DNA of 64,000 nt. Origin: Eledone cirrhosa (lineage: Eukaryota). Position 1 is the first letter of the stretch. Every line of letters begins with the position of its first letter. The translations under genes and the position numbers were made by a program. Below, piece by piece: positions 28,401 through 63,864 of this stretch. The notes beneath the pieces were generated by a model. It was not told the origin of the DNA. It was given only the letters and a program-made list of their open reading frames with translations, and ran no database searches. The stretch spans positions 1,302,001 to 1,366,000 of the forward strand of contig OZ024755.1 in NCBI GenBank assembly GCA_964016885.1, given 5' to 3'.

Positions 28401-28917
28401 TGGTGTTAAGTGACTGAGAGTACAAAACTTCCCCTGGGCAGGCCGGCAGTCCATTGCAGGGTTAAAGTCTGTCTCGGAGTACTAGACTCCCCCCTGGAAA
28501 GAAACAAGTGGTACTTTATGTTCTGAGTTCAAATCCCAACAAGGTCAACTTTGCCTTTCATCCTTACAAGGCTGATAAAATAAAATACCAGTAATGCACT
28601 AGGGTTGATTTAATTAACTTTGCCTTTAATCTTTGCAAGGCTGATAAACATACCAGTAATGCACTGGGATCAGTATAATTGATTGTCCCCTTTATCTCCA
28701 AAATTGCTGGCCTTGTGCCAAAATTAGAAACCATTTTAAGTTAACTTATTTTCCTTTAGAAATCCATTATCTGATTGACATTTTGTTTATTTCCAGTGAA
28801 TACAGAATCAATGTGTTGGACAATATGTTTCAGCCATCAATTCTTGTGATAGAAGAAGGAGAAACTGTCTGGTGGCACTGGAACCATGATCTGGTCTGTA
28901 TATCTACTACATATACA

Positions 28918-28959
<42 letters not shown>

Positions 28960-30836: not shown

Positions 30837-30869
<33 letters not shown>

Positions 30870-30887
30870 CTATATATACACACACAG

Positions 30888-30948
<61 letters not shown>

Positions 30949-36900: not shown

Positions 36901-38546
36901 GGGGTTCATCACTTAATTTAAAAGCCCTAGTTATATTTATTAGATTCTTTGACCCCTTTTCTTACCCTATTTCTTATGGAATATCTCTGCCTATAATTTT
37001 TAATTAATTTTGAAAATCAAGTATTTGGAGGGATTTAGTAATATGTATAACTAACTTTCTCATTATTAAGCTCATGTTTGGAACATAAAGGTTCTTACAT
37101 ATTGTTATAACATATGAGGTCCCCAGTGTGTGTGTGGGGGGGGGGGGGGGGCTAAGTTATAGCTTATTTACCTTAAAAGTAAGTCCTGAACTGGCTACAC
37201 TGAGGCCCTCAAGTGTGTGAGACCCTAAGCTATAACTTACAGGTAAGTCCAGCACTGATTACACTGAGGTCCCTGAGGGGTGTGTGACCCTAAGCTATAA
37301 CTTATTTAACTGATAGGTAAGTCTTTCATTGATGTTAACCTGTCTTTGTAGGTTTACAATGAAACCAGTGGTATTGAATTTCTCCAGGGAGGAATCCATG
37401 TGATACGTGTTTTAGCAAGATGTAAGGGGTACTGCGACAGTGATGTCTTATACTCAAAGTAAGGAATAGCAAATACTACTACTGCTATTACTACTACTAC
37501 TATTGCTATTACTACTACTGCTACTACTATTGCTATTACTACTACTACTATTGCTATTACTACTACTATTGCTATTACTACTACTACTACTATTGCTATT
37601 ACTACTACTACTATTGCTATTACTACTACTATTATTACTACTATTGCTATTACTACTACTATTATTACTACTATTGCTACTACTATTGCTACTGCTACTA
37701 CTATTGCTATTACTACTACTACAACTACTGCTTTCTTTTCTCTTTTCTTTTTTCCATTCTTCTTGTCTTCTATTTTTTTACTATTTTTTTTTTTCCATTT
37801 ATCATTTTACTTTATCTTTTCCCCTCTTTTTTTGTCTTTTCATTTTATTTTTTTCTTATCTTTTCTTCAAAAACTGGGATTTGGTCTAATTCTCTAAACT
37901 CCCCATGTTAGAAACAGAATCGTTAGAGCATCAGACAGCAAGCTTTGCAGCATAGTTACGGCCTTTTATGTTCTGAGTTCAAATCCTGCCGAGGTTAACT
38001 TTGCTTTTCATCCTTACGGGGTCGATAAAATAAAGTACCAGTCACACACTGGAGCTGACTTAATCGACTTTCCCCTCCCCCCAGATTACCGGGCTTGTGC
38101 CTATATAAGAAATTATTATTATTACAGTTGCATTTATCTTGCTTTATGTTCATACGAGTTATCACCAAGTCACAACCAGTGACCTCAAGAGACAAGGTCC
38201 GCCATGTTCAAGAAAGAACATACATACACACACACGCATCTTTAGGTGTTTAGACTTGTGATGTACTTATATTGACAGAATCTTCCTTAGTATATGGGCA
38301 GTTCCCATTAGTACTATCTTTTGTATTTCTCCTATACGCGGGTTTCCTGGGATTTGCGATAAGTAATCATTAGACCCCTTAGGTATCATTCCTAGAGCAC
38401 CTACAACCACTGGTATTGTTTTAGTTCTCAATTTCCACATTTTTCCAATTTCTATCTCCAGGTCCTTATACTTGCTCAATTTTTCAAATGTTTTTATAGA
38501 TACATTCTTGTCTATTGGAACGGACATATCAATTAGCAGGCATACC

Positions 38547-38588
<42 letters not shown>

Positions 38589-38746
38589 ACGATTATATTT
38601 TTCTGCTTCAACCAATTCTGATGCAAAACTGATTGTTCCCAGTCTAAGATTAATAGATGATGTCCCAGAACATGGACCAACAGTAAGTACAGGGATATCA
38701 TCATCATTTCATTTTACGTCCACTTTTCCCTGCTTGCAAGGGTGGG

Positions 38747-38785
<39 letters not shown>

Positions 38786-44700: not shown

Positions 44701-45577
44701 TAATAGTTTAGTATAATATATAGTATCTAAGGTGTATGGCTTAGTGGTTAGAGCATCAGATTCACAATTGTAAGGTTGTGAGTTCAATTCTCAGGCAATG
44801 TGTTGTGTCCTTGAGCAAGACACTTTATCTCATGCTGCTCCAATTCTCTCAGCTGTATCAGCCTTTGTCTTAATATTGGTGGCATACAGAGGGGAGACAG
44901 GTAGACATGGGTGACTGCTGGTCTTCTACAAACACACCTTGTCCATTGAACAACATCGGTGACCAAGCCCTCATCAACTTCTTCAAAAACCTTGCCTTTG
45001 AGAGTATTTCATCATCATCATCGTCGTCACTATCATATTACCACCACCATCATATTACCACCACCACTACCACCACCACACTACCACCACCACACTACAC
45101 CACCACCACCATCACCACTACCACCACCATCACCACTACCACCACCACACTACACCACCACCACCACCACCATCACCACTACCACCACCACCCTACACCA
45201 CCACTACCACCACCACCCTACACCACCACCACTACCACTACCACCACACTACACCACTACCACCTACACCACCACTACCACCACCACACTACACCACCAC
45301 CACCACCTTTATGTCAACACATCTTTTTATTCATCTCCAGATGAATCTGTCCTCCCAATCCAGTCCAATGTCCTTGATATCAAGATGTCCGATGTATTAC
45401 AATATTTAGAAAATCTCTCGACATTACAAAAGCTGTCTTCATGGGAGCCATTCCTCGAATATATTACTGTCAGAGAGAATTCCATCAGAAGTAATTCTTC
45501 TCAGTCTTCAGGTCAGTTTCTACATTATTACTACTTGTTGTGCCTTAATCAGACCAGTTTATGTGAGTGTATATATG

Positions 45578-45610
<33 letters not shown>

Positions 45611-48600
45611 ATATGTGTGTATGTATGTGTGTGTGTGTGTGTGTGTGTGTGAGTGTGTATATGTATGTGTGTGTGTGTATGCATATGCGTGTGTATGTAT
45701 GTATTTGTAAGACTTCGCCAAGTGCTGCTATTAAGTTAGACATCGCCTGGGCCAATACTGGCCGAAACCTATCAAAGTTATGTGTGTGTGTATATATACA
45801 TGTATTTGTGTATATATATATATATATGTGTATATATAAATGTATATATATATATGTGTGTATATATAAGTGTATGTATGTATATATATATATGTGTGTG
45901 TGTGTATCTAGCATGGAAAAATGGACATTAAATGACGTTGATGTTGATACATGTGTATCCAGTTTATTCATATTTATATGTCTAACCCATGCTACCGTGC
46001 AAGATGGACGTTAAACGATGATGTGTAGATATTACTATTTAGTTTATAAATCTTCTCATTTGCCTTTAAAAACCAAATAACTCACATTGTGTCACTGATA
46101 TCACATTGTTTTTAATAATTGTTTCTACAGTGCATTACTGGTACTTTATTTTATCGACCCCGTAAGGATGAAAGGGAAAGTCAACCTCGGAATAATGTCT
46201 TTATAACACATTGTGTGTGTGTGTGTGTGACAGCTCACACCTATGTGTGTGTGTGTGTGTGTGTGACAGCTCACACCTATGTGTGTGTGTGTGTGTGTGA
46301 CAGCTCACACCTATGTGTGTGTGTGTGTGTGTGTGTGACAGCTCACACCTATGTGTGTGTGTGTGTGTGTGACAGCTCACACCTATGTGTGTGTGTGTGT
46401 GTGTGACAGCTCACACCTATGTGTGTGTGTGTGTGTGACAGCTCACACCTATGTGTGTGTGTGTGTGTGTGACAGCTCACACCTATGTGTGTGTGTGTGT
46501 GTGTGACAGCTCACACCTATGTGTGTGTGTGTGTGTGACAGCTCACACCTATGTGTGTGTGTGTGTGTGTGACAGCTCACACCTATGTGTGTGTGTGTGT
46601 GTGTGACAGCTCACACCTATGTGTGTGTGTGTGTGTGTGTGTGACAGCTCACACCTATGTGTGTGTCTGTGTGTGTGTGTGACAGCTCACACCTATGTGT
46701 GTGTGTGACAGCTCACACCTATGTGTGTGTGTGTGTGTGTGACAGCTCACACCTATGTGTGTGTGTGACAGCTCACACCTATGTATGTGTGTGTGTGTGA
46801 CAGCTCACACCTATGCAGGTTTAGCTGGCCTCCTCCAAGGTATATCTCGTTGGAGGTGTCTTGGGTGATTTAATGATAGGGACAGGTGTAGAAAAATAAC
46901 ACATTGTTTACTATTAAATCAATAAATCAACCTCATCAATGCCTTATTAATACATTGTTTACTTCAATATTTATTTTTAAATCAACAGTATCAACATCAT
47001 CATCATCATCTTCAGATAATGAAGGTGACACTCTGTCAACATCTGAAACTGAAAGTACTGATTCCTTTGATCAACTTTCAAATGATGTCATTTCTAACGA
47101 ACGGCTTCAACTTGACTTTGATCTAACTCAACACACACCTGAAACAACAAAGAATTTACTTGAACATGTACGTGTTCCTCAAGAAAGTACTCGGAGTGAA
47201 CTTGAAACCATAACATATGTAAAGGTATTGTTTCTTTAAACCACCTGATATTAGTCTAAGTTGTATATTTTGAAGTATTTATATTTATTGAAAATAAAAA
47301 CTTGATAAATGATGTTGATAGATGTTGATGCTACTACTAATATTACTTCTATTTTTTACTTTTCTTTTTTAAATGCTTCATCTATGAAGGGGGCTTCATC
47401 TGATACAGAGGCTTCCGCAGTTAAACAGACTTCTGCAGTTAAACAGACTTCTGCAGTTAAACAGACTTCTGCAGTTAAACAGACTTCTGCAGTTAAACAG
47501 ACTTCTGCAGTTCAACAGACTTCCGCAGTTAAACAGACTTCTGCAGTTAAACAGACTTCTGCAGTTCAACAGACTTCCGCAGTTAAACAGACTTCAGCTG
47601 TTAAAGAGGCTTCAGCTGTTAAAGAGGCTTCAGCTGTTAAAGAGGCTTCAGCTGTTAAAGAGGCTTCTGCAGTTAGAGAGATTTCCGCAGTTACAGAGGC
47701 TTCCACAGTTAAAGAGACTTCAGTTATTCAACAGAGTTCAGTTGTTCAACAGAGTTCAGTTGTTCAACAGAGTTCAGTTGTTCAACAGAGTTCAGTTGTT
47801 AAACAGACTTCAACTAAAGACGGCTCATCTGTCAAGATCTCAACTGTTAAAGAGAACTCAACTGTTGAAGACAGCTCAAATGATAAAGACAGCTCAACTG
47901 TTAAGATCTCAACAGATAAAGACAGCTCAACTGTTAAAGACAGCTCAAATGATAAAGACAGCTCAACTGTTAAGATCTCAACTGTTAAAGACAGCTCATC
48001 TGTTAAGATCTCAACTGTTAAAGACAGCTCAGCTGTTAAAGACAGCTCAAATGATAAAGACAGCTCAACTGTTCAGATCTCAACTGTTAAGATCTCAACT
48101 GATAAAGACAGCTCAGCTGTTAAAGACAGCTCAGCTGTTAAAGACAGCTCAACTGTTAAGATCTCAACTAATAAAGACAGCTCAACTGTTAAGATCTCAA
48201 CTGTTAAAGACAGCTCATCTGTTAAAGACAGCTCATCTGTTAAAGACAGCTCATCTGTTAAGGAGATCTCAACTGTTAAAGACAGCTCAACTGTTAAAGA
48301 GATCTCAACTATCGAATTACTGCTCCAAATTGATGATCACTACCAAGATAATGCAGTGGTGTTAAGGTGGGAAGAATCAACACCTCTTCAGTCCAAATAC
48401 CAACCAAAGATATTTACTGTCACAGTTTCAGGAACCAGTTTTCAAACAGACATTAACAGTAATTTGAGGTATTCTTAATTCTTCTTAATCACAACATATT
48501 GTTTTAACTTGTTTGTTTTTTAGCACTACCACTTTACAGAGTGTACTGGGTGTATTTTATTGTGTCACCAGCACTACCACTTTACAGAGTGTACTGGCAT

Positions 48601-51600
48601 AAAATACACCCAGTACACTCTGTAAAGTGTTAGGGCTGGTGCTACAATAATTGGAGTAAATATATCTTTAAACCAGGAACTGGAATGTGTATAAGTGAGT
48701 ACGTAGTTGAGCCAGGGATTAGTGTGTTAGTCAGTATGTCTGTGACCCAGGGGACGGACTAAACATGTCTTTGAGCCAGAGGTTAGTCTGTTAATGAGTA
48801 AGCATGTTAGGCAGGGTCAGAAGTGTGTTGGTAAACAATATTTTGTGTAACTTAATATTCTCAGTAAAAAAAAGGCAGACATTTTGAATCTATCTGCAAG
48901 ACAAGCCGAGACCACAAGGAAGACTTACCCTTAAGTTTTATTTATAGTTGTGACATGGAGAATAATTTACTTAACCCTTTAGCATTTACATTACCTTGGA
49001 TTTACTATTGTATTTTCATGGTAAAGGTTTTATCTCATATAATCTAAAATCTACCAGATTTCGATGATTTTATTCTTTATTTTGAGAATATCTTAATGCT
49101 GGTATGAGTGGCTGGTTATGGCCAGTTATAGTCAGTTATAGCCAGTTATAGGCAGTTATAGCCAGTTATAGCCAGTTACGGCCAGTTATAGCCAGTTACG
49201 GCCAGTTATAGCCAGTTATAGCCAGTTATAGTCAGTTATAGCCAGTTATAGCCAGTTAGGGCCAGTTATGACCAGTTTGAATAGAAAAAAGGGGGAGAGA
49301 ATTTTGGCCGGATATGACTGGTTTAAATGTTAAAGGGTTAAACTTACGTTAAACAAAACAAAAAAGATAACCTAATAACTGTTGTCAATATTAATCTTTA
49401 CTGAAATATTTTTCTGTTCCAGTTATGAATGTAATATAACTAGAGATGATACAACTATAAGAGGTACCCTCCATTGCTGGGATGTTACTAAAGAGAAAGC
49501 TTGCAGAATCACTGGATTGCATCCGGGATTAACTTATAAGTATGTTATACAATATTTCTTACATTTCCTAGATTTGATTTTTGATGATTTTTGTGGAGGA
49601 TGGGGTGGGGGTCTGGTTAATCATCATCATCATCATTTTTACATCAACTTTTCCATGCTTGCATGGGTTGGACAGGTCCTTCTCAGCACAGCATCTCTCC
49701 ACAAATCATGATCCTTTGTCATCACCTGTGTGGGTTTTAGTGATTTGAGATAGCCTTAACTAGAAATCAATATTTCGTTATATCCAACCCATACAAGCAT
49801 GGAACAACAGACGTAAAATTATGAAGATGATCTCAAATTCTGCTGAGGTCACTTTTGTCTTTCAGCTTTCTGAGGTTGACAAAATGAAGTACCATTGGGA
49901 AGGAGGCAACAAGATCTTGTCCATGTTATAAATCTATTTATTTCTTTATCTCACTGTTCAGTTTTTCAGTGAATGGAACATACACATGTGAGGATGAAAA
50001 TCTCAGTATAAAGTCTTCTGAGAAGGTCTACACCCTAAAAGGGCAACCAGGACCTCCTACTTTAACTTCCTTCAAGGTGTATTTATATAAGGTAATACTT
50101 TGTCAGTTGACACACTCGGTATACATTTTCATCTTATTTGTATAATACCCTGCAAGGTATAACTTGTCCTGTCTTTATCTCTTCCTCTTTTATTATGTCC
50201 CAATGTTCTCTGGTAAGAATAGTATCAACCTTAATTTACTGAAACTGTAGTGATTTCCAGAGGTTGACTGAAGAGATGAGACTGTTTGTCCTGTCTTTAT
50301 CTCTACCTGTTTTGTTATATAAACATTTTCCTCTTCATTCTTACCTCTTATGTCCCTCTTCTTTCTTGTCTCCCTAACACTGTTTCTTTTAAATCTTCAT
50401 CTCCTGTAGAAGATAAGATGAGAGAAAGGATGAAAGTTAATTTTGTTATTTACTGACGTACATTTCTATTTCTACTTCTCTAATTTGTTTGTGTTCTAGG
50501 TTTCATTCTGCCTTAAAGAACCAAAAGACCTTCACCCAGATCTAAAACTGTCTGGCTACAAAGTCTTTTATAATTCTCGCTGGAATGAAGAACTAATTGA
50601 TCCTGCTGCTAGAATTGAAAAGGAACTGAAACCAGGTATGATATCATTTATTTGGCAAAAGAGGAATTTTATCTTTTTACCTAACTCTGAAATAATGCGA
50701 TCTTGAATACCAGAGGCTGAAATGGGATTCCTCCAAAGGGTCTTTGGAGTAATGTTACTCAATAGGGAGTGTAGCTCAGAGATCAGAGTATCACTCCAGG
50801 TAGAGTCGCTACTTCTCTGAATTGAGAGATCACAGGTCAGATACGATGGTCATGTGGTTAGAATGTCTCAGGAAAGAATCTCTGCACAGATTTTACAGGC
50901 AAAACCAACCGGCAAGAGACCCAGGGGTAGACCACAAGCAAGATAGTCGGATAATATCCATGAGCTTGGATGATCTCGCTTGGGGATCCAGCCTGATCAG
51001 ATGGAGAAGATTGCTTCTGACAGGATCCACTGGAGGCAATGTTTGAGGACTCTGCCCCAAAGACCCTCTCTGGAATAAGTGGGTGAAGAAGAACCTTACT
51101 CCACTTCATTTTTAGAATCTTATATTTTTACAATGGTTGGCTGAAAAATTCATAGGCGACTATGGAGTGATGCTAGAGCTGTGAAATCTTGCATGCATTA
51201 ATTTCAACTCTTCTTACTAATAATTACATTGTTTCTCTCCAGGGACTATGTTGAAAAATAAACCTCATTTGGTCATTCCATGAGAGTATCTTGGTCAGCC
51301 TATGAACTTCTCAGCCGACTTCCATAATCATTTTCTATTTACTATATTTTGCTTGATTTAAGGTTCCACGATGACAATAACAGTCGTAGCGGTGCCAGAA
51401 CAAAATATTGAAGAAAGTAAACAGTGTCCCCCAGTTTATGTCTCATGTCCCGATTCTCCATTGGCACCAACTATAGAAGAACAGACATCCTTCAAGAAAG
51501 GTGTTACAGTTGGGTGGAGTAAACCACCTACATCCTCTGGTCAAGACATTTCAATGTACAGGTAAATATTCTTTAAATCACCTACATCATCAGATCAAGG

Positions 51601-52214
51601 TATTTACAGGTAAGTAATCTCTAGCTTTTCTATAATTTTGACAAACTAAAATTTTACCTGTATTAAATTTTTTTTTTTTTTTTTTTTTTTCATCAGATAT
51701 TCTGATATTATTTATTGTTATAAATCTCTGCAAATTCTTCGCTGAGTTCAGTGTATTTCATTAGAAATACAATCCTAAATATATTCTATTGCAATTTCTC
51801 ACCTGTTAAAACCAATTTAAATTCTGTTTCTCTATAGAATCTATTTAAATGACAAATTAAATGGAGAAATCCAAGCTAACAGCTATAGTGATAAGAATGG
51901 CTACCAATTTACTTTGACGGAACTGTCCACCTATGAAACCTACAAAATATATGTCAAGGTAACTTCAAATTAAGATTTATTTACTTTATAAATACATATA
52001 TATATAAGTGGAGGTGCCACGGCAAAAAAGCACCCAGCCCACACTGTAAAGTGGATGTTGGTGTTAGGAAGGGCATCCAGCTGTAGAAATCAAGTCAGAA
52101 TCAATTCCCGTATGAGCAGGACAAGGTCAGCCGACCGGACACTGCCCACAACAGGACAACCCGTCTAACCAATGCCACTGTGGAAGAACAGACGTAAAAC
52201 GGTGATGATGATGA

Positions 52215-52249
<35 letters not shown>

Positions 52250-55200
52250 AAAAAAGTGCCTAGTCGCCCCTGTAAAGTGGTCGTGCCAGTGACATAACAA
52301 AAAAACAGCCAGTCTACCCTGTAAGGTGGTTGTGTTGGTGACGTGACAAAAAAAACATAGTCTACCCTATTAGGTGGTCATTTTGGTTCCTTAATAAAAA
52401 GCACCCGGTCCACACTGTAACATGGTTGGTGTTATGAAAGGCATCCAGCTGTAGAAACCAAGCCAAAATACACATCTGTATGAGCAAGATATAGGCTTTT
52501 AATATTAGATAAAGAATTACTTTGGCAACACTTTACAGGTAATATATGAATATGTCTTTGTATCTATTGCAGTCTGTATGTGGTCGAAGTCATATTGAAC
52601 CAGGAAACAACCATATTTCTGTGTTAAGTGACAGCTCTCCTTCCAACACCTTAACTATTTGTACATCGAAAAATGCTGATTCACCAAAACTCTATCTTGA
52701 AAGTATGACTCCTGATGGAATTGATGTAGCTTGGGAAATACCAGAACAGAAGAATGTTGTCATAACGGTAAATTTATATTTTTTTAAGAATATAGAAAAT
52801 GATACATTTTAAAAGTGGGTGACATGTTCTATGATGTCAGATAGAATGGTTTGTGGTACTTGTTTCAGCTCTCTGTTCTCTGTTTTCTAAAGGGTTACCA
52901 GATGTTTTAAAACCATCTCTGTTCTCTGTTTTCTAAAGGGTTACCAGATGTTTTAAAACCATCTCTGTTCTCTGTTTTCTAAAGGGTTACCAGATGTTTT
53001 AAAACCATCTCTGTTTTCTAAAGGGTTACCAGATGTTTTAAAACCATCTCTGTTCTCTGTTTTCTAAAGGGTTACCAGATGTTTTAAAACCATCTCTGTT
53101 CTCTGTTTTCTAAAGGGTTACCAGATGTTTAAAAATCATCTTTTGTATGGTTCTGTGATTCCACCTGAAATAAATACCTTACGGATTAGGGACCTAACTC
53201 TTGGAGATGAAATTACCCTTCAGTTGGTTGCCTTGACAAAACCTCCTCCAGGTGAAAACATCAATGGACAGAATACAGATGAAGATACATCAAAGAAAAA
53301 TGGTAATTTTACAAATTTCTCTGCCATTAATAATGCTTCAGTACTGAATTGGCCTATGTAGACCTGTCCAACCCATGCTAGTACCCCTTCAGTACTGAAT
53401 TGGCCTATGTAGAACTGTCTAACCCATGCTAGTACCACTTCAGTACTGAATTGGCCTATGTAGACCTGTCTAACCCATGCTAGTACCCCTTCAGTACTGA
53501 ATTGGCCTATGTAGACCTGTCCAACCCATGCTAGTACCCCTTCAGTACTGAATTGGCCTATGTAGACCTGTCTAACCCATGTTAGTACCCCTTCAGTACT
53601 GAATTGGCCTATGTAGACCAGTCCAACCCATGCTAGTACCTCTTCAGTACTGAATTGGCCTATGTAGACCTGTCCAACCCATGCTAGTACCCCTTCAGTA
53701 CTGAATTGGTCTATGTAGACCTGTCCAACCCATGCTAGTACCCCTTCAGTACTGAATTGGCCTATGTAGACCTGTCCAACCCATGCTAGTACCACTTCAG
53801 TACTGAATTGGTCTATGTAGACCTGTCTAACCCATGCTAGTACCCCTTCAGTACTGAATTGGCCTATGTAGACCTGTCCAACCCATGCTAGTACCCCTTC
53901 AGTACTGAATTGGCCTATGTAGACCTGTCTAACCCATGTTAGTACCCCTTCAGTACTGAATTGGCCTATGTAGACCAGTCCAACCCATGCTAGTACCTCT
54001 TCAGTACTGAATTGGCCTATGTAGACCTGTCCAACCCATGCTAGTACCCCTTCAGTACTGAATTGGTCTATGTAGACCTGTCCAACCCATGCTAGTACCC
54101 CTTCAGTACTGAATTGGCCTATGTAGACCTGTCCAACCCATGCTAGTACCACTTCAGTACTGAATTGGTCTATGTAGACCTGTCCAACCCATGCTAGCAC
54201 CCCTTCAGTACTGAATTGGCCTATGTAGACCTGTCCAACCCATGCTAGTACCCCTTCAGTACTGAATTGGTCTATGTAGACCTGTCCAACCCATGCTAGT
54301 ACCCCTTCAGTACTGAATTGGCCTATGTAGACCTGTCCAACCCATGTTAGTACCACTTCAGTACTGAATTGGCCTATGTAGACCTGTCCAACCCATGCTA
54401 GTACCACTTCAGTACTGAATTGGCCTATGTAGACCTGTCCAACCCATGCTAGTACCACTTCAGTACTGAATTGGCCTATGTAGACCTGTCCAACCCATGC
54501 TAGTACCCCTTCAGTACTGAATTGGCCTATGTAGACCTGTCCAACCCATGCTAGTACCCCTTCAGTACTGAATTGGCCTATGTAGACCTGTCCAACCCAT
54601 GCTAGCACCCCTTCAGTACTGAATTGGCCTATGTAGACCTGTCCAACCCATGCTAGTACCCCTTCAGTACTGTCTTGGCCTATGTAGACCTGTCCAACCC
54701 ATGCTAGTACCCCTTCAGTACTGAATTGGCCTATGTAGACCTGTCCAACCCATGCTAGTACCCCTTCAGTACTGAATTGGCCTATGTAGACCTGTCCAAC
54801 CCATGCTAGTACCCCTTCAGTACTGAATTGGCCTATGTAGACCTGTCCAACCCATGCTAGCACCCCTTCAGTACTGAATTGGCCTATGTAGACCTGTCCA
54901 ACCCATGCTAGTACCCCTTCAGTACTGTCTTGGCCTATGTAGACCTGTCCAACCCATGCTAGTACCCCTTCAGTACTGAATTGGCCTATGTAGACCTGTC
55001 CAACCCATGCTAGTACCCCTTCAGTACTGAATTGGCCTATGTAGACCTGTCCAACCCATGCTAGTACCCCTTCAGTACTGAATTGGCCTATGTAGACCTG
55101 TCCAACCCATGCTAGTAAGAAAAGTGGATGTGAAATCAATGATAATGAGTGGTTTTGGAAATGTCCAATGTTCAATTTCTAGTAGAACAAATAAAATATA

Positions 55201-58200
55201 CATCATTTTTTTGTTTCTATATTTTAGAGAGTACAAAACATTCGAGTTACTCTAGCTGTGAACCTGGTCAATCATTAAACCTTCATTATAGTGGATTGGT
55301 CCAATGTCCAAGTAAAGTCTGGTGTGAGAAAGTTACAGGACATTCCGCTCTTATTGTTTGGAACAAAGGTAAGGTTTGGATTATTCCTCTCCATCCCACC
55401 ACCCACCCCTTGTTTATACATTTTAAACTTTGATGTTTTGCCAAGAATCAGATTAGTCATTTTATTACTGTCTAATGAAAACCAAACATTACTTGACAGA
55501 GTACATAGCTCAGAGATCAGAGAGTTATTAATACTTTCATTACTGTCTAATGTATTCCCAACACTATTTCTTTCAACCCAACATTATCTGTTTAACCCAA
55601 CATTATCAGTTCAGTTCACTCTATATTCCCAACATTATCTGTTCAGTCCAACACTATATTCCCAACATTATCTGTTCAGTTCAACTCTATATTCCCAACA
55701 TTATCTGTTCAGTCCAACACTATATTCCCAACATTATCTGTTCAGTCCAACTCTATATTCCCAACATTATCTGTTCAGTTCAACTCTATATTCCCAACAT
55801 TATCTGTTCAGTCCAACACTATATTCCCAACATTATCTGTTCAGTCCAACTCTATATTCCCAACATTATCAGTTCAGTCCACTCTATATTCCCAACATTA
55901 TCTGTTCAGTCCAACTCTATATTCCCAACATTATCTGTTCAGTCCAACACTATATTCCCAACATTATCTGTTCAGTCCAACTCTATATTCCCAACATTAT
56001 CTGTTCAGTCCAACACTATATTCCCAACATTATCTGTTCAGTCCAACACTATATTCCCAACATTATCTGTTCAGTCCAACTCTATATTCCCAACATTATC
56101 TGTTCAGTCCAACACTATATTCCCAACATTATCTGTTCAGTCCAACACTATATTCCCAACATTATCTGTTCAGTCCAACACTATATTCCCAACATTATCA
56201 GTTCAGTCCAACACTATTTGTTCAATTCACCTCCTTTAATAATGATAATGTATAATTTACTGTATACTCAGGTGAAAAGCTGAAACCTCATTATGTCCAA
56301 CCAGAGAAATATCAGTTAACTTGGTGGCCTGGAGAAAATGCTGAGAAAGGAATTGGTACCGATTGTACTGACGGTAACAGAATAGTTTTAGTTTAATTTA
56401 TAATGAGATGATGATGATGGTGATGTGTTATGTACATGTGTGTGTGTGTTACTTGCATTATTTAACTTTGCCTTTCATCCTTACGGGGTCGATAAAATAA
56501 AGTACCAGTAATGTACTGGGTAATTGCTGGCCTTGTGCCTAAAGTAGAACAATTATGTATATGTTTGAGTGCTGTGTGTGTATGTGCATGTATGTGTGTC
56601 TTTCAAATATTTTACAAACTAATCAATTATTTTGTTATATTCTCTAAATTATCATTGATTTAATTGATCTAATTGATCTTATTGATTGATTTGTTAACAG
56701 ACGATCTCTTTGTTCTGCCAAACCTTCAATCAAGCAGCCATTACACAGTTGTTGTTGAAGCAAGATTAATGAAGAAGTTGACAGATGGAAATACAGGTTT
56801 GTCTTTTAGGGGTCTTTTAGGGTTGTTGTTTCTTGTGTTAGAATTGATTACAGGCTGAAACAAAAGTCAGAAACTGTACATAGTACACATAGTACACACA
56901 CACTCACAACACAGTATACACACACACAACACAACAGACATACACACACACACACACAGTACACACACACACAACACGACATACACACACACACACACAA
57001 CAGACATACACACACAACACAAAATAATTATTAGTTATTAGATTCATTTGGTAAGTTAACACTTTAAAACCACTCTAAGATCACACAAAAAAATCTATAC
57101 ACTTTTTATCATGTCACCAACACGATTACTTTACAGGGTGGACTGGGTGCTTTTTGTTGTATCACCAACATGATCACCTTACATGGTGACACAACAAAAA
57201 GTACCCTGTCTACCCTGTAAAGGTGTCCACAAACACACGTTCAATACAATTGATTTCACCTGAAACCAACAGATAAACAGTTATATAATTCACTTCATAA
57301 TTAAACCACAATACTAAATATTGTAAACTTTACATTGAATATTTTTTCTTCAGATGATGGAGAAGAAAGAACTTTTATCTTTTCAACAAAATCTGAGCAG
57401 ATTAAATTTAAAACAGCCAGCCCTCCAGACCCTCCATCAAATATTGGAGTTGTGTCCTCAACTTGTAACAGTGTCAAGTTGGCCTGGAGCTCACCAAAAG
57501 AACATGGAGTGGAAATTACAGGTATCAAAATTTCTGAGGATTTTATAAGATTTAAGTTTTTCGTTTATAAACCAAAACATTTGCAGAAGAAAGGAAAAAT
57601 AACTTCTCCCCTATAGCCACCCAATAGCCAATACTAACTGCTCCCTGTGGTCAATATATATATATATATATATATAATATATATGAAAAACAAGGGGAGA
57701 AGAATACTGCATGGTTGCACATGGATTACATATTATAAAATTAGTCCCTCATCAGTGATTTGCCAACCATCATTGGTATTTCATTGCATTAAAAATCAGA
57801 TACCTCAGGTTGGTGCGAGCAATAACTAAAATAAGCTATTGGGACAAGTGAAACGCGTAAAGCGAGTGAGACAAGTAAACAACAGAAGGAAAAGCAGGGA
57901 GCAGTTATTATTGGCTAGCTATAGCCACCTTGTAGAGCTGATATACTGACCACAGGGAGCAGTTATTATTGGCTTGCTTGAAAACATTTGATTTTGACAG
58001 GACTTAAACTCAGAATGTAAAGAGATGTAACTAAATACCACAAAGTAGTTGATATTAATATAAGTGTAAAGACAATTATCACTAGATACAGTCGGTAGTT
58101 TTGACAACATTATATCACAGTACCTAGAGTAGACATTACAGGGTAAATATAGAGATACATTTAGAAGTTACATGTGGGCCTTTTAACGTGGTATTAGTGT

Positions 58201-61200
58201 GAAGACCCTCCTTCAGCCCCTGCCAGTACATTGTCCACACCCCCACCCTTGTCATTTAAAGATTGTCATATTTATTTAAGGTCTACACAACTTATGCTGT
58301 ACATTTCTGTTATTATCCAGGCCTCTACATAGAACTGACCTCAATAACCAATAACACAGACAACAATAGCGAACAAGAACAACAAACTCTACAACTCAGG
58401 CCTGATTCCAAAGAAGTCATCTTTGAAAATCTCTCTGAAAAGAGAGAATATCTTGTTCGTATCTACGCAGTAAATGACGAGTATTTTGACTTGCTTCCCA
58501 GAAACAACCGTCTGAAGAAACTTCGGTATATTCCGGAAGGAACAAGTATGAACTTAATAGAATCCATGTGGCTTCCATTTTCTAGTTTTGTCTTCAGAAC
58601 TTCTGGCACAGATCCTGCAACTAATGTCACGGTTTCCCAATATGCAACTACAACAATAACCATTAGATGGACAAATGCAGTTGTTTATGGAAGTAATGAA
58701 GTTCAAGCAATTATTGTTCGGTGGATTGAAGTTAAAGAAAGAACTTGTAATAAGAAAGAATTGTCAATTGGTCACAATGCCAAACTTCCAAAAGATGCTA
58801 ATTTCCTGGTAATCAAAGATTTATCCCCTGGCTGTCAGTATTGTATAACTGTAGACACCATTGTTAATATGAAGACATGTTTAGAAGTTGACAACATTGA
58901 CAAGAAATGGAGGACAGTTTCTGTTAGTTCTGAACTTCTGATGGCTTTAACTCAAGTCTCGATTCCAACACCAAAGGTAAGACTAAATTAAAATTCTAAT
59001 TTTATTATGGTTAATTAGCATTAAATTAAGTTCTTTGGTGTTTGTACCAACCTATGAACTTTTCAGCCTACCCTTGTAGTTACATACGTTATTTTTTTAC
59101 TCTTTTACCTGTTCCAGCTGAGGCCATGCTGGGGCATCACCCTTGGGGAATTACTTTATTTTGATTTAATAAAATGTTGTTATCTTCTATATTTTAATTT
59201 AGATTTATGTCTCGAGTTACAAAGGATCCGTGGTGAATATTTGCTGGGAAACTCCAAGAATGACATCAATTGTGGGGAAAGATAAGAATGGTAAAGAATT
59301 ATACCAGAAATGTTATTTACTTGGTTATCAACTTATAATCAATGATTTACTTCAGGCAACTCTCAGACCTGAAGACAACCATTGTACTTTACAGAAAATC
59401 AAACCTGATAAAAATTATTCTGTAATTCTGGTTGTAATATCCAGCTGCCAACGAGATAGCAAAGTCAGAAAATGGAAGGTAAGTTAAACTGAATCTTGTT
59501 TCGTTGGTTATTTTTATTGATTTCTTCAATAATGTTTATATTTAACAACATTCCAGTTATATACATACCATATTTTACGGCATCAAAGACGCTACTTTTT
59601 TCCTAAAATAAGTCTAAATAATCCCCCATGCATCCTGGAGGCTGAAGGTTGTTTATTATTTTTTTCAAATTTAGGGCATTAGGGCGGTGGATTGGCAGTA
59701 TTGGTCGAGAGTCAGACGCCATGCTTTGCAGCAAAGATTTACGGCCCTTTATGGTCCGAGTTCAAATCCCGCCAAGGTTAACTTTGCTTTTCATCCTTAC
59801 AGGTTCGATAAAATAAAGTACCAGTAATACACTGGGATAATTGCTGGCCTTGTGCCAAAAGTAGAAACAATTATTTTTTTTCAAATTTTTGGTTGTCAAA
59901 ATTCGGGTGTGTCCTCGAGGACGAAGTGTCTTCGGGCCGGGAAATACGGTAGTCATGGCAATGTTACAGAATAAATGACATTAACTTTAGATAATTGGAT
60001 TATGTCTTCACAGGCAATTATTTATTTATTTGATAGCCTCACCCTAAGAATCTACCAAACAGACGTTGGCCACTTGTCACATCTGAAAATACTGGTATTG
60101 ACTACACTCCATCTGAGACCCTTAACATCAAACTTCCACCAAAATCAAATGGTTTGTATTTATTTATTTATTTATTTTCAGAATTCCTTATATTCAATCA
60201 TTCCATATTATCATCATCATCATTTTACATCTGCTTTTCCCTGCTTGCAAAGGTGGGACGGGTCCTATTCAGCACAGCATCTCTCCACTTGTCACAGTCC
60301 TTTGTCATCTCTTCCATGAGCTTCAGTAATCTGAGGTCTGCTCTCACCACCTCCGCCCATAATTGGTTTGATTTTTGTTTTCTATATATATATAAAACGG
60401 TGATGATGATGATATATCTTTGTATTGTTTTGTTTTTATTCCCTATTTGAAGCCTCAATAACTTCTGTTAGAACTAAATTCCGGGACAGCGAAGAAATGA
60501 ATTCAATGGGACACTTTTTAATTGAATGGTCAGTTAGTTCCAGAGAAACTGTTAAAGAGTTTTCAATAAATTGGTTTACACTCGATGATAAAATGACTAT
60601 TATCAAATCTCTCATTGTCAACAAACTACATTGTTGTATCCCAGTAAATAAACTCAAGTAAGTTGTTTGGGGTTTTTTGTTCATTCTCTTTATATATGGA
60701 TTGATAGATTTTCCACTCAATCTTGTGGAAAGCAAATATATCACTTTGTATATTAATTAATAAATTTTCCACATTAACCCTTTAGCATTTAAACCAGCCG
60801 TATCCAGCCAGAATTCTATCACCTCTTTCTCTTCAAACCCATCATAACCTGCTACTCATACTTATGTTAAGGTATTGTTCTCAAAATAAGGAACATCAAA
60901 ATCTCATAGATTCGATATTATGTGGGATAAAGCGTTTACCATAACAATACAACAGTATATATAGAGTAATGTAAATGCTAAAGGGTTAAGATATTCTATA
61001 TTCATTGTAATATATAAAGCCTGAAAAATAAAGTCTGAAGTCTGTCTTGAGCCTGGAGACTCATCAGGTCAGTGCTTCTCCTGATTTCCATGGCATGAAG
61101 TGACTGAGAGTACAAGACTTTCTCCCACCTGGACAGGACACCAGTCCATTGCAGGGTTAAGCCCCCATCTGTTACTGGTATTCATTTTCAGCTGAATATA

Positions 61201-63864
61201 CTGGAGAAACGTGAAATGAAGTGTTTTGCTCAAGAACACAACACACAACACACAACCGAGTCCAGGAATCAAACCCACGATATTATAATAAGTGAAACAC
61301 CCTTACCACTAGGCCATGTGCCGTCACATATTTACCTACAATAATAATGTCTAATTGTTTTGCAGATCAGTTTATGAAATCACAATAGAAAGTTGCCCGA
61401 TAGAGGAAGAATGTGAAACGTTATCTCAAGCTGTTCATGTGATAAGTCCTGGAGAACCTGATCCACCTTTATTAATATTGGAATCTGCCAGTTCCTCAGT
61501 AATCTGTCTCTATTGGCAACAGCCTAGAACATTTGCTTCTGTTACAATTAAAGCTTACCAAGTAAGAACAACAAAAATGGTTTCTAAATATGCACTTGTT
61601 CTTCTGTTCTACATTATATACCATTAAAATAAGTTATATACCATTAAAATAAGTTATATACCATTAAAATAAGTTATACACCATTAAAACAAGTTATATA
61701 CCATTAAAATAAGTTATAAACCGTTAAAATAAGTTATAAACCATTAAAATAAGTTATATACCATTAAAATAAGTTATATACCATTAAAATAAGTTATATA
61801 CCATTAAAATAAGTTATAAACTATTAAAATAAGTTATATACCATTAAAACAAGTTATACACCATTAAAATAAGTTATATACCATTAAAATAAGTTATAAA
61901 CTATTAAAATAAGTTATATACCATTAAAACAAGTTATATACCATTAAAACAAGTTATATACCATTAAAATAAGTTATATACCATTAAAATAAGTTATATA
62001 CCATTAAAATAAGTTATAAACTATTAAAATAAGTTATAAACTATTAAAATAAGTTATAAACCAGTTACTAGGAGTGTAAAAAAGTCTAAAGTCTGTCTTG
62101 AATCCAGAGGTTCATCAATCCGGTGCTTATCCTAGTTTCTATGACAGGAAGTGAGTGAGAATACATGACTCCCACCTGGATAAGATGCTAGTCCATCACA
62201 AGATTAAACTCCAGCTATTGCTGCTGGTACTCATTTCTAATAAAGTTATATACAAAAACATTGTTTACATTATTATTATTATTGCCATTGGCGATGGATT
62301 GGCTGAATCAGTAGAGGGTCGGACGCCATGTTTTCCAGCAGAGTTACGTCCCTTTACGATCTGAGTTCAAATCCCGCCGAGGTTGACTTTGCCTTTCATC
62401 CTTACGGGGTCGATAAAATAAAGTACCAGTAATGTACTGGGTAATTGCTGGCCTTGTGCCTAAAGTAGAAACAATTATTATTATTGCCATTGTTATTATT
62501 GTTGTTGTTGTTATTATTATTATTTTCCAGCTCTATGTTAACGACACTCCAACGGCGGAGCTGGGGTCAGACATTTCTACTTACAACTTCTCCTGTTTAG
62601 CAGAAAAGTAAGTAAACTACATTCACATTGATAAACTGGGAAATGTTGTGGGTGGGTGGGGGAGTGTATAGGGGGAGGGGACCTCTGTTGTGGGTGGTTG
62701 GGGGAGTGTATAGGGGGAGGGGACCTCTGTTGTGGGTGGGTGGGGGAGTGTATAGGGGGAGGGGACCTCTGTTGTGGGTGGTTGGGGGAGTGTATAGGGG
62801 GAGGGGACCTCTGTTGTGGGTGGGTGGGGGAGTGTATAGGGGGAGGGGACCTCTGTTGTGGGTGGTTGGGGGAGTGTATAGGGGGAGGGGACCTCTGTTG
62901 TGGGTGGGTGGGGAAGTATGTAGGGGGAGGGGACCTCTGTTGTGGGTGGTTGAGGGAGTGTATAGGGGGAGGGGACCTCTGTTGTGGGTGGGTGGGGGAG
63001 TGTATAGGGGGAGGGGACCTCTGTTGTGGGTGGGTGGGGGAGTGTATAGGGGGAGGGGACCTCTGTTGTGGGTGGGTGGGGAAGTATGTAGGGGGAGGGG
63101 ACCTCTGTTGTGGGTGGTTGGGGGAGTGTATAGGGGGAGGGGACCTCAGAGAGAAACCTGACAAATGTTGAGGGTGGGTGGGGGAGTATGTAGGGGGGGG
63201 GGGCTCTGTTGTGGGTGGTTGGGGGAGTGTATAGGGGGAGGGGACCTCAGAGAGAAACCTGACAAATGTTGAGGGTGGGTGGGGGAGTATGTAGGGGGGG
63301 GGCTCTGTTGTGGGTGGTTGGGGGAGTGTATAGGGGGAGGGGACCTCAGAGAGAAACCTGACAAATGTTGAGGGTGGGTGGGGAAGTATGTAGGGGGAGG
63401 GACTTCTGTTGTGGGTGGGTGGGGAAGTATGTAGGGGGAGGGACCTCTGTTGTGGGTGGGTGGGGAAGTATGTAGGGGGAGGGACCTCAGAGAGAAACCT
63501 GAGAAATGTGGTGAGTGGCTGTTGTTCAATTTATTACAAATATGGTCGCAAAAGAGTTAATTTATTCTTGTTTTTCTTTCTCTTTAGAGTTTACAAATTT
63601 AATTTAGTGGCTTTATCCAACAATTGCCAATATGGAGATTCTGCTAAATCAAATACATTGGTTGTCACGACAACAGCATCTGCAAATGAACAACAGAACG
63701 GTAATCATCGGTTGATGTTTCCTGGAGATTGTCAAAATATTGCCAACTATTTGAAAACATCAAAGGTAACCGACACAAAGATCTACTTAGAATGGAACTC
63801 CTATGTTGCACCTGAAGGGCTGGAGTCCTACAAGATTCAGTGGAGCAGTGTTGCTCAGCCAGAG
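22372..63864 (+). CDS. Uncharacterised giant protein: 7 cupredoxin-like repeats, Fn3-associated domain, about 13 FN3-like repeats and an S/T/K/D repeat linker; 3' end lies outside the window
   Basis: 48 exons joined by hand, all GT-AG, with matching phases and no internal stop (7896 nt, 2632 codons from ATG 22372). The start is uncertain because the first exon has an acceptor at 22360 and is open upstream of the ATG. Confidence 0.88.
22624..22817 (-). repeat. Second copy of the hairpin element
   Basis: Hairpin at 22626-22737 plus the shared GGACCATAAC-CACCAGAGTACTC segment. Confidence 0.8.
22838..23925 (+). mobile_element. 5'-truncated RTE-clade LINE with (GAT)n tail
   Basis: [20 protein letters not shown]...[12 protein letters not shown]...GRPRKTW C-terminus; 3' UTR ending AACCCATGCAAGCGTGGAACATGGACGTTAAAC(GAT)n; (TA)n on both sides. 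Confidence 0.9.
24350..24397 (+). CDS. Giant gene exon 2
   Basis: [16 protein letters not shown]; phase 0/0. Confidence 0.8.
25631..25746 (+). CDS. Giant gene exon 3
   Basis: [38 protein letters not shown]; phase 0/2. Confidence 0.85.
26190..26402 (+). CDS. Giant gene exon 4
   Basis: [56 protein letters not shown]...; phase 2/2. Confidence 0.88.
26761..26860. mobile_element. 100-bp Tc1/mariner-type MITE
   Basis: TA-flanked imperfect TIRs CACGGTGTCCCAAAAAATGTATACAC / GTGTATATACTTTTGGGGGACACCCTG. Confidence 0.75.
26958..27002 (+). CDS. Giant gene exon 5
   Basis: [14 protein letters not shown]; phase 2/2. Confidence 0.8.
27595..27832. repeat. Fold-back (palindromic) element
   Basis: TGTTTATTGAAAACT...CCCTGGGTGGGAAAAAAGTTGACAT / ATGTCAACTTTTTCCCATCCAGGG...AGTTTTCAATAAATACA. 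Confidence 0.75.
27932..28018 (+). CDS. Giant gene exon 6
   Basis: [28 protein letters not shown]; phase 2/2. Confidence 0.85.
28083..28309 (-). mobile_element. piggyBac-like MITE family A
   Basis: TIR CCCTTTAGCATTTA / TAAATGCTAAAGGG with TTAA TSD. Confidence 0.85.
28797..28893 (+). CDS. Giant gene exon 7
   Basis: [32 protein letters not shown]; phase 2/0. Confidence 0.88.
29353..29424 (+). CDS. Giant gene exon 8
   Basis: [24 protein letters not shown]; phase 0/0. Confidence 0.82.
29885..29919 (+). CDS. Giant gene exon 9
   Basis: [11 protein letters not shown]; 35 nt, phase 0/2. Confidence 0.78.
29948..30608. repeat. 40-bp minisatellite filling most of intron 9
   Basis: ATATGTACATCTGGAAGGGTTTCATTAACCTACTTACCCC x about 16. 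Confidence 0.95.
30639..30799 (+). CDS. Giant gene exon 10
   Basis: [53 protein letters not shown]; phase 2/1. Confidence 0.88.
31065..31205 (+). CDS. Giant gene exon 11
   Basis: [46 protein letters not shown]; phase 1/1. Confidence 0.87.
31511..31668 (+). CDS. Giant gene exon 12
   Basis: [52 protein letters not shown]; phase 1/0. Confidence 0.85.
31994..32110 (+). CDS. Giant gene exon 13
   Basis: [39 protein letters not shown]; phase 0/0. Confidence 0.88.
32628..32740 (+). CDS. Giant gene exon 14
   Basis: [37 protein letters not shown]; phase 0/2. Confidence 0.88.
32914..32962 (+). CDS. Giant gene exon 15
   Basis: [16 protein letters not shown]; phase 2/0. Confidence 0.83.
33655..33827 (+). 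CDS. Giant gene exon 16
   Basis: [39 protein letters not shown]...; phase 0/2. Confidence 0.86.
34348..34420 (+). CDS. Giant gene exon 17
   Basis: [24 protein letters not shown]; phase 2/0. Confidence 0.84.
34766..34882 (+). CDS. Giant gene exon 18
   Basis: [39 protein letters not shown]; phase 0/0. Confidence 0.87.
35607..35675 (+). CDS. Giant gene exon 19
   Basis: [23 protein letters not shown]; phase 0/0. Confidence 0.87.
36046..36202 (+). CDS. Giant gene exon 20
   Basis: [52 protein letters not shown]; phase 0/1. Confidence 0.87.
36718..36887 (+). CDS. Giant gene exon 21 (Fn3-associated/CHB_HEX_C-like domain, first half)
   Basis: ...[37 protein letters not shown]; phase 1/0. Confidence 0.87.
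37352..37458 (+). CDS. Giant gene exon 22
   Basis: [35 protein letters not shown]; phase 0/2. Confidence 0.86.
37475..37730. repeat. (CTA)/(CTATTG) microsatellite
   Basis: Produces the spurious poly-Leu ORF. Confidence 0.95.
38124..38549 (-). mobile_element. 5'-truncated Dong/R4-clade non-LTR retrotransposon
   Basis: Restriction-like endonuclease C-terminus LLIDMSVP...EKLSKYKDL...IPVVVGALG...GTAHILRK; (TAA)n on both sides. Confidence 0.85.
38589..38682 (+). CDS. Giant gene exon 23
   Basis: [31 protein letters not shown]; phase 2/0; acceptor preceded by (ATT)12. Confidence 0.8.
38945..39190 (+). mobile_element. tRNA-headed SINE family 2 with CORE-like segment (representative copy)
   Basis: A-box GGCTTAGTGG, B-box GTTCAATTC, then CCTTGAGCAAGATACTTTATTTCAC; copies at about 21490-21610(-), 21960-22130(-), 42815-42925, 44738-44850 and 61130-61320(-). 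Confidence 0.8.
39270..39395 (+). CDS. Giant gene exon 24 (FN3-like)
   Basis: [42 protein letters not shown]; phase 0/0. Confidence 0.86.
39391..39575. repeat. 37-bp tandem repeat containing the exon 24 donor
   Basis: TAAAGTAAGTATTATA(G/C)AGGACAGGTAAATAACAAGT x5. Confidence 0.92.
39642..39870 (-). mobile_element. piggyBac-like MITE family A
   Basis: Same TIRs and TTAA flanks. Confidence 0.85.
39925..40345. repeat. 57-bp minisatellite
   Basis: GTAAGTCACACTAGTAGATAAGTCACTTCTATTATATGTAGGTGTATATATTAGTAT x about 7. Confidence 0.93.
41090..41125 (+). ncRNA. Minimal type I hammerhead ribozyme motif in intron 24
   Basis: TCTT-CTGATGA-A-GGAC-TAGC-GTCC-GAAACGTT-AAGA: core, stem II, palindromic AACGTT stem III typical of dimeric PLE hammerheads, 4-bp stem I. 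Confidence 0.7.
41315..41467 (+). CDS. Giant gene exon 25
   Basis: [51 protein letters not shown]; FN3 L-x-x-G-x-x-Y motif. Confidence 0.88.
41782..41940 (+). CDS. Giant gene exon 26
   Basis: [53 protein letters not shown]. Confidence 0.87.
42169..42265 (+). CDS. Giant gene exon 27
   Basis: [32 protein letters not shown]; phase 0/1. Confidence 0.84.
43178..43198 (+). CDS. Candidate 21-nt cassette microexon of the giant gene
   Basis: TTTCCAG|TAAGACAGTGTGGAGATTTAG|GTAAGT; phase 1/1, stop-free in frame (IRQCGDL). Confidence 0.4.
43303..43915 (+). mobile_element. Second TTAA-flanked MITE-like family with internal 23-bp array
   Basis: Begins TTAACTCTTGTGTAACC and ends TATCAAAAGGGTTAA; related left ends at about 36950 and 44225; (CCTTGGTATATACACTAACTAGT)n at 43430-43635. 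Confidence 0.55.
45005..45308. repeat. (CAT)/(CAC)/(CTA) microsatellite
   Basis: Degenerate trinucleotide tract. Confidence 0.9.
45341..45511 (+). CDS. Giant gene exon 28
   Basis: [56 protein letters not shown]; phase 1/1. Confidence 0.83.
46212..46815. repeat. (TG)n-ACAGCTCACACCTA tandem array
   Basis: Constant 14-mer separated by variable (TG)n; contiguous with a SINE tail. Confidence 0.93.
46989..47224 (+). CDS. Giant gene exon 29 (acidic Ser/Thr-rich linker)
   Basis: [28 protein letters not shown]...ELETITYVK; phase 1/0. Confidence 0.8.
47390..48468 (+). CDS. Giant gene exon 30 (coding 18-bp minisatellite linker and start of an FN3)
   Basis: Stop-free; hexapeptide repeats [24 protein letters not shown] and TVKIS, then [19 protein letters not shown]; phase 0/2. 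The 5' boundary is less certain. Confidence 0.75.
48971..49341 (-). mobile_element. piggyBac-like MITE family A with internal 10-bp array
   Basis: Same TIRs and TTAA; internal (GCCAGTTATA)n at about 49120-49280. Confidence 0.85.
49423..49539 (+). CDS. Giant gene exon 31
   Basis: [38 protein letters not shown]; phase 2/2. Confidence 0.88.
49962..50091 (+). CDS. Giant gene exon 32
   Basis: [43 protein letters not shown]; phase 2/0. Confidence 0.83.
50500..50635 (+). CDS. Giant gene exon 33
   Basis: [45 protein letters not shown]; phase 0/1. Confidence 0.85.
50695..51090 (+). mobile_element. Decayed RTE-clade LINE fragment
   Basis: Colinear with 20540-20950. Confidence 0.75.
51130..51323. 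mobile_element. mariner-like MITE (partial copy at about 40697-40780)
   Basis: GGTTGGCTGAAAAATTCATAGGC ... GCCTATGAACTTCTCAGCCGAC inverted ends. Confidence 0.6.
51363..51561 (+). CDS. Giant gene exon 34
   Basis: [13 protein letters not shown]...[38 protein letters not shown]; phase 1/2. Confidence 0.87.
51838..51958 (+). CDS. Giant gene exon 35
   Basis: [40 protein letters not shown]; phase 2/0. Confidence 0.87.
52573..52767 (+). CDS. Giant gene exon 36
   Basis: [13 protein letters not shown]...[29 protein letters not shown]; phase 0/0. Confidence 0.87.
52871..53140. repeat. 46-bp tandem repeat containing the exon 37 acceptor
   Basis: CTCTGTTCTCTGTTTTCTAAAG|GGTTACCAGATGTTTTAAAACCAT x6 (one 39-bp copy). 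Confidence 0.95.
53116..53302 (+). CDS. Giant gene exon 37
   Basis: [45 protein letters not shown]...; phase 0/1. Confidence 0.86.
53336..55117. repeat. 51-bp minisatellite, about 35 copies, SINE-derived
   Basis: CTTCAGTACTGAATTGGCCTATGTAGACCTGTCCAACCCATGCTAGTACCC. Confidence 0.96.
55228..55368 (+). CDS. Giant gene exon 38
   Basis: [46 protein letters not shown]; phase 1/1. Confidence 0.87.
55550..56225. repeat. 33-bp minisatellite
   Basis: CTATATTCCCAACATTATCTGTTCAGTCCAACA/T. Confidence 0.94.
56272..56373 (+). CDS. Giant gene exon 39
   Basis: [33 protein letters not shown]; phase 1/1. Confidence 0.84.
56701..56796 (+). CDS. Giant gene exon 40
   Basis: [31 protein letters not shown]; phase 1/1. 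Confidence 0.86.
57354..57521 (+). CDS. Giant gene exon 41
   Basis: ...[38 protein letters not shown]; canonical FN3 start. Confidence 0.9.
58321..58976 (+). CDS. Giant gene exon 42
   Basis: LYIELTS...[18 protein letters not shown]...[20 protein letters not shown]...[14 protein letters not shown]...IPTPK; phase 1/0. Confidence 0.9.
59203..59478 (+). CDS. Giant gene exon 43
   Basis: [18 protein letters not shown]...GYQLIIND...[16 protein letters not shown]...RKWK; phase 0/0. Confidence 0.89.
59568..59949. mobile_element. pogo/Tc2-like MITE with a nested SINE (about 59682-59870)
   Basis: TA-CCATATTTTACGGC ... GCCGGGAAATACGG-TA termini. Confidence 0.6.
60037..60151 (+). CDS. Giant gene exon 44
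   Basis: [38 protein letters not shown]; phase 0/1. Confidence 0.75.
60453..60657 (+). CDS. Giant gene exon 45
   Basis: [42 protein letters not shown]...CCIPVNKL; phase 1/2. Confidence 0.85.
60774..60989 (+). mobile_element. piggyBac-like MITE family A
   Basis: Same TIRs and TTAA flanks. Confidence 0.85.
61366..61561 (+). CDS. Giant gene exon 46
   Basis: SVYEITIES...[38 protein letters not shown]; phase 2/0. Confidence 0.89.
61615..62062. repeat. 20-bp AT-rich minisatellite
   Basis: CCATTAAAATAAGTTATATA x about 22. Confidence 0.95.
62531..62607 (+). CDS. Giant gene exon 47
   Basis: [25 protein letters not shown]; phase 0/2. Confidence 0.86.
62644..63505. repeat. G-rich minisatellite of about 42 bp
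   Basis: TGTTGTGGGTGGGTGGGGGAGTGTATAGGGGGAGGGGACCTC units. Confidence 0.94.
63588..63864 (+). CDS. Giant gene exon 48 (last in window; gene continues)
   Basis: [26 protein letters not shown]...[38 protein letters not shown]; ends at a donor with no stop. Confidence 0.87.

Follow-up and report, generated by a model that had tools for sequence, protein, structure and literature searches.

What does a gene do with an exon whose acceptor splice site is preceded by five further acceptors of nearly the same sequence, each of them leading directly into a stop codon? The question arises in Eledone cirrhosa, in a 64,000-nucleotide stretch of the genome assembly (GCA_964016885.1, contig OZ024755.1, positions 1,302,001 to 1,366,000 of the forward strand) that is here called the window. 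The acceptors belong to a minisatellite at exon 28 of the 38 exons modelled by hand in its host gene (25631 to 63864). Three phase breaks in this model imply that some exons are missing from it. The host gene is intact on both sides of the array, and the exon chains 1-10, 11-20, 22-34 and 35-38 contain no stops.

The encoded protein falls into an uncharacterised family of 3,200-4,000 amino acids with members in molluscs, an annelid, a brachiopod, hemichordates and echinoderms. Its cupredoxin-like N-terminal part is a weak Pfam match (E 0.01), and FN3 repeats were also found. Among the matches listed, the nearest named homologues are molluscan, and no protein labelled as cephalopod appears among them. 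Protein searches with single exons as the query gave no match, and metagenome scans for a related locus found none. Elsewhere in the window, a 197-codon open frame at 22935-23525 looks like the end of a reverse transcriptase, which we take to be of the LINE type.

Structure of the array and its authentic junction

Six acceptors end at 52892, 52938, 52984, 53023, 53069 and 53115, exactly as the initial annotation had proposed, and the 46-bp unit that it described was recovered as well (Table 1). The exon share of that unit is 23 nt next to 23 nt of intron rather than the 24 nt first claimed, a discrepancy within ambiguity because a 3-nt stretch is shared at the unit junction. AAG is kept in all six copies, and an exon-derived CAG lies nine bases downstream of the AG in every unit. 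The unit ending at 53023 lacks one heptamer of the pyrimidine tract; this 39-bp unit is a trace of past slippage. Units carry both shared and private variants. All copies agree over the first 15 exon bases and diverge only at +16 and +21. There the five spares have two substitutions in common relative to the authentic exon: +16 A>T, which creates the stop, and +21 T>C.

Table 1. Coordinates in the window of the host gene, the acceptor array with its copies, and neighbouring or comparable repeats
Feature	Position	Strand	Description	Basis
Host gene	25631..63864	+	38 or more exons, coding for a cupredoxin-like N-terminal part and many FN3 repeats	Hand-made exon model, homologues
46-bp array across donor 31206	31191-31377		First spare keeps GT, following two without GT	
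Older two-copy donor duplicate	31664-31749		Spare donor in same phase (+45 nt), behind a stop	
37-bp array	39392-39573		Four exon bases per unit; donor 39396 repeated five times; layout as in human F7 intron 7	
Older two-copy donor duplicate	51520-51613		Donors 51561/51609; spare in same phase (+48 nt), behind a stop	
Upstream exon	52573..52767	+	First half of an FN3-like repeat in 65 codons, ending on a whole codon	Open frame, splice signals; aligns to snail homologue P0002 1834-1908
Intron	52768..53115	+	348 nt (125 nt minus five added units), GT..AG	Sequence; relative X8 contig omits exactly 348 nt
Degenerate piece of dispersed SINE-like repeat	52833..52890	+	Runs on into copy 1's pyrimidine tract	80% over 54 nt to 42402-42455, E 1.7e-8; profile E 0.018
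Minisatellite across intron-exon boundary	52870..53141	+	Period 46 bp, 6.1 copies, 93% matches, one 39-bp unit	Tandem Repeats Finder; depth ratio
Copy 1	52870..52915	+	Acceptor AG 52892; original intron context, without YTNAY/YTRA at -45..-15; stop after 5 codons	
Copy 2	52916..52961	+	Acceptor AG 52938; stop after 5 codons	
Copy 3	52962..53007	+	Acceptor AG 52984; stop after 5 codons	
Copy 4	53008..53046	+	Acceptor AG 53023; unit of 39 bp with a short pyrimidine tract; stop after 5 codons	
Copy 5	53047..53092	+	Acceptor AG 53069; exon-derived YTRA, candidate branch A 53087 (-29 to the real acceptor)	Motif prediction
Pyrimidine tract and AAG of authentic acceptor	53093..53115	+	AG 53115	Sequence, relative's joint, homologues
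Authentic exon	53116..53302	+	Second half of the FN3-like repeat, 187 nt	Open frame; 54% identical to snail homologue P0002 1899-1954

The five upstream copies do read GYQMF followed by a stop, and acceptor 53115 alone gives a frame that remains open as far as the next donor, at 53303. At the residue that corresponds to the spares' TAA codon, 20 of 25 homologues have Lys, three have Arg and two have Val, both of the latter being weak matches. The donor GT at 52768 follows a whole codon. The spacing from a conserved Trp to the junction is 13 residues in all 25 homologues and 12 in the window, so the junction carries no insertion relative to the homologues.

Contigs from four of the 15 runs listed (X1, X4, X5 and X8) were aligned to the stretch. 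X8 comes from a relative (about 90% identical), and one of its contigs, 9,323 nt long, joins 52767 to 53116 across a GT..AG intron; this is the only joint listed, found in one of the four runs. Judged by the homologues' Lys and the X8 joint, the last copy is the ancestral one. This joint fixes the ancestral junction and not the choice of site in E. cirrhosa. X5, from the same organism and another sample, contributes a 151-nt contig (depth 2.1) that matches 53206-53302 and exits at the donor as spliced RNA would; it stops short of the 52767/53116 junction. Differences from the relatives are silent at four of the six listed in the upstream exon and at seven of 12 in the downstream exon, the latter being 12 of the 17 in that piece.

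Two further features of this junction were recorded. Nine bases into the exon, at 53124, lies an alternative CAG that is in frame; it scores 4.08 against 5.0, and its use would lose three conserved residues. Stripped of the array, the intron at 52768-53115 measures 125 nt, and the other 36 modelled introns are at least 226 nt long.

Splice-site choice and its rival explanations

The array is a real, well-formed acceptor-side mirage, a kind of repeat already described in amphioxus and humans. Probably, the mirage is tolerated: the spliceosome uses only the last acceptor, and the five upstream copies are removed as intron. The first duplication would have occurred between short, similar pyrimidine-rich stretches, followed by two substitutions in the spare copy and then by expansion through slippage or unequal crossing-over. 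The shared TAA is most simply explained as one mutation in the first spare that was spread by this expansion. Exon definition would settle the choice of site, and a small leak to the spares would meet a premature stop and probably be removed by nonsense-mediated decay (NMD).

Acceptor strength does not separate the copies. In a weight matrix built from the other 37 acceptors of the host gene, five copies score 5.0 and the short copy 4.68. Predicted unpaired probabilities are also alike at all six sites, and shielding of the spares by RNA structure was accordingly rejected. Since site scores are equal and accessibility is alike, the choice should rest on downstream context. Each spare is followed by 15 identical exon bases, and the last copy by a 187-nt exon with its donor. 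Use of a spare would create an exon of 233-410 nt; 35 of the 38 modelled exons are no longer than 213 nt. Some observations count against use of the last acceptor only. The authentic acceptor is weak for its gene (11th percentile of the other 37, with AAG at five of 38 acceptors) and faces five equal rivals that are transcribed earlier, and the single junction seen comes from a relative that is about 90% identical and may not share the array. A folding z-score of -2.24 is not meaningful, as shuffling destroys the repeat.

Mirages, tandem repeats that span exon-intron boundaries and keep the splice signals, were named in amphioxus, where examples are Adh3, the globins BflGb6 and BflGb9, troponin C and PGBD5 (PMC3087553, PMC3902484). 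There they vary among haplotypes, have homogenised inner copies and leave splicing undisturbed (PMC3087553, PMC3902484). Four structural features of mirages were found in the E. cirrhosa array. Intron end and exon start are repeated in tandem as one boundary-spanning unit, splice signals are intact, the unit (46 bp, once 39 bp) lies within the reported 10-160 bp, and the inner copies are homogenised next to a distinct boundary copy, as the two substitutions common to all five spares illustrate. Donor and acceptor sides are both affected, within one genome in amphioxus and within the host gene here. Unlike those mirages, the array belongs to another animal group, and haplotype length variation and correct splicing are data from amphioxus only.

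Human genes offer close parallels. In CBS, c.844_845ins68 is a duplication of 52 nt of intron end plus 16 nt of exon start in which a few bases diverge; splicing favours the distal site, and the mRNA is normal (PMC7490669, PMC2630376). The sites are termed "donor" in one paper (PMC2630376) and 3' splice site in the other (PMC7490669). The E. cirrhosa array likewise duplicates an intron end and an exon start with few divergent bases. It differs in having six copies rather than two and 23 nt of intron rather than 52, and in CBS the splicing was shown experimentally. F7 intron 7 carries a polymorphic 37-bp VNTR that repeats a splice site and of which the exon-proximal site is used, and further donor-spanning VNTRs occur in CBS intron 13, LAMIN B2 and PDGF (PMC1557585). 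Both the F7 VNTR and the acceptor array are minisatellites repeating a splice site, and the 37-bp donor array at 39392 in the window shares the F7 layout. In F7, however, the real donor is transcribed first, whereas the real acceptor here is transcribed last.

That order of transcription bears on the strongest rival, in which a sizeable share of transcripts uses the upstream copies and is lost to NMD, so that more copies mean less protein and the array acts as a leaky rheostat or a hypomorphic allele. All five spares keep a pyrimidine tract and an AG, score equal to the real site and are transcribed first. By the usual rule, a stop more than 50 nt before a junction marks a likely NMD target. 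Use of an upstream acceptor would place the stop 215-392 nt before the next junction, and the earlier claim that such use would yield truncation or a likely NMD target is therefore sound.

The stops themselves carry less weight. They had been presented as a notable design, a view that found no support: with authentic exon letters placed in every unit, all five spares still run into a stop, at codon 20-33, and a stop within 20 codons also follows 1174 of the 1661 intronic AGs in the host gene. Stops thus arise by default without the TAA change, which speaks against a rheostat, and a stop selected as a safeguard was rejected because the spares reach a stop even with the ancestral exon letters.

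Experiments with duplicated sites point both ways. Minigenes in which a 3' splice site is duplicated reportedly go back to an original study by Reed and Maniatis in 1986. In one report, a beta-globin substrate whose upstream acceptor has 14 nt of exon behind it is spliced to the distal site at 25:1, falling to 6:1 if transcription is coupled; coupling thus raised upstream-site use five-fold in vitro, up to 1 in 7 (PMC1450099). Similar duplicated-acceptor substrates use the distal site exclusively, though inefficiently, in another (PMC5389562). These minigenes (wt14, 3'D-14/55/205) resemble the array in the short piece of exon behind their upstream acceptor, 14 nt against 15 identical nt here (PMC1450099, PMC5389562). 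They are artificial, carry two copies and were assayed in human extracts. Use of the two nearest spare sites as well is seen in two donor arrays of human genes, including that of CBS intron 13, yet F7 donor-array minigenes with 1 to 12 copies leave site choice unchanged (PMC1557585). In amphioxus, mirages give no aberrant mRNAs (PMC3087553, PMC3902484), and boundary arrays in the host gene are neither depleted nor enriched. Taken together, a rheostat or hypomorph is unlikely, though not negligibly so.

A second alternative is compatible with a tolerated mirage. Here the first extra copy would have been useful, its exon sequence having supplied the real acceptor with a missing branch point, and later copies would be neutral. 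Only 23 intron nt are duplicated, and 223 nt now separate the real acceptor from any original branch point. Copy 1 has no YTNAY/YTRA motif at -45..-15, copies 2-6 have a YTRA from the exon-derived part, and 30 of the 37 other introns have one of these motifs; on this motif prediction, copy 5 may be what provides the real acceptor with a branch point. The absence from copy 1 means little, however, because 62% of random intron windows have the motif and seven of 37 true introns are without it. In addition, the intron end is similar to a dispersed repeat, putatively a SINE, and many contigs align at 52833..52890 in all four runs; against this, the profile match is weak (E 0.018). Compensation of this kind is rather unlikely.

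Beside this repeat, two observations were made. The copy at 42402 has an AG where the tract at 52833-52890 has none. An 11-bp word across the acceptor (52887-52897) recurs at 2512, 28084, 28298, 39643, 39859, 48972, 60775 and 60978 and is identical to the terminus of a dispersed element; this element has inverted ends, spans about 200 bp and is represented by three pairs in the window. The match was treated as probable chance, since it does not extend further and the intron contains no partner end.

Both ideas can be combined. The array would then be a working part of the splice site, in which an exon-derived branch point rescues a weak, repeat-derived intron end and the extra copies leak into NMD according to their number, forming a heritable dosage dial on the acceptor side. 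This combined proposal is improbable.

Recursive splicing or the formation of a new intron, with the spares as stepping stones that regenerate a donor, is hardly credible. Ratchet sites are defined by an AG followed directly by GT. In every unit a GT does occur two bases past the AG, but all six copies read GGT after it, and with GG rather than GT behind the AG, a second splicing step would retain one base too many and change the reading frame. The context of this GT is far from that of the host gene's donors, and no such joint is among those listed in the four runs. Tandem AG/GT copies are a proposed route of intron gain (PMC3087553), and in the Rogers model introns arise by tandem genomic duplication around AG/GT sites (PMC2812944, PMC3087553). 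As in that model, a site containing AG/GT has been duplicated in tandem and redundant copies would be spliced out. Unlike in it, no new intron appears and one that was already there grows by 223 nt: the X8 contig has the same intron position with no added exon or intron, and the 25 homologues indicate no insertion.

Read support for the copy number

Short tandem arrays can be mis-assembled, and none of the contigs listed from the four runs spans the whole array. Even so, a genome with one acceptor and an array produced by assembly error is an exceedingly remote prospect. In run X1 the repeat is collapsed into a 76-nt contig that contains the unit junction, matches with zero differences and has a depth of 64.3; the left-flank contig, also with zero differences, has a depth of 14.6. 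The resulting ratio of 4.40 compares with predictions of 4.54 for the assembled array and 0.17 for a single acceptor (for perfect arrays, 4.17 with five acceptors and 5.17 with six). In this one sample, depth therefore agrees with the assembled copy count. The shared and private variants among units also argue against an artefact. That reading, which had been named as a possible refutation, is already largely refuted, and the array stands as genuine as far as tested. The ratio checks the assembly rather than other individuals or a second allele, because X1 may be the window's source sample.

Coverage elsewhere is patchy. X1 has no cover at 53123-53335, perhaps owing to loss during contig cleaning; a 265-nt single-copy stretch lies there between two arrays. 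The alignment of X4 is confined to 52676-52815. The second of these arrays, 51 bp x 35 at 53336-55117, begins 33 nt past donor 53303 and thus leaves the 187-nt exon between two arrays.

Boundary-spanning repeats in the host gene and their meaning

Tandem repeats make up 27% of the host gene span. Four of its 23 minisatellites lie across an exon boundary, against 2.3 expected by random placement (P(>=4) 0.19), in a test with little power, on small numbers and a hand-made exon model. These are the acceptor array at 52870 and three donor arrays, at 31191, 31664 and 39392. A probe test with 14+14 nt found 2 of 76 boundaries; it misses units with few exon bases and was not used for the count. Boundary-spanning arrays are thus neither rare nor clearly selected in the host gene, and on these small numbers are as common as random placement predicts. 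In the older duplicate at 51520, the spare donor at 51610 is a better consensus match than its partner.

Identity of the first 15 exon bases in all copies means that RNA reads with short overhangs could be attributed to an acceptor that was not used. Were the branch-point or the dosage reading true, a minisatellite would have gained a direct role in splicing. If the array is a tolerated mirage, it extends a known type of repeat to another invertebrate lineage, and it would provide a clean natural test of exon definition, with six equal acceptors of which the real one is transcribed last and with mirror images on the donor side elsewhere in that gene.
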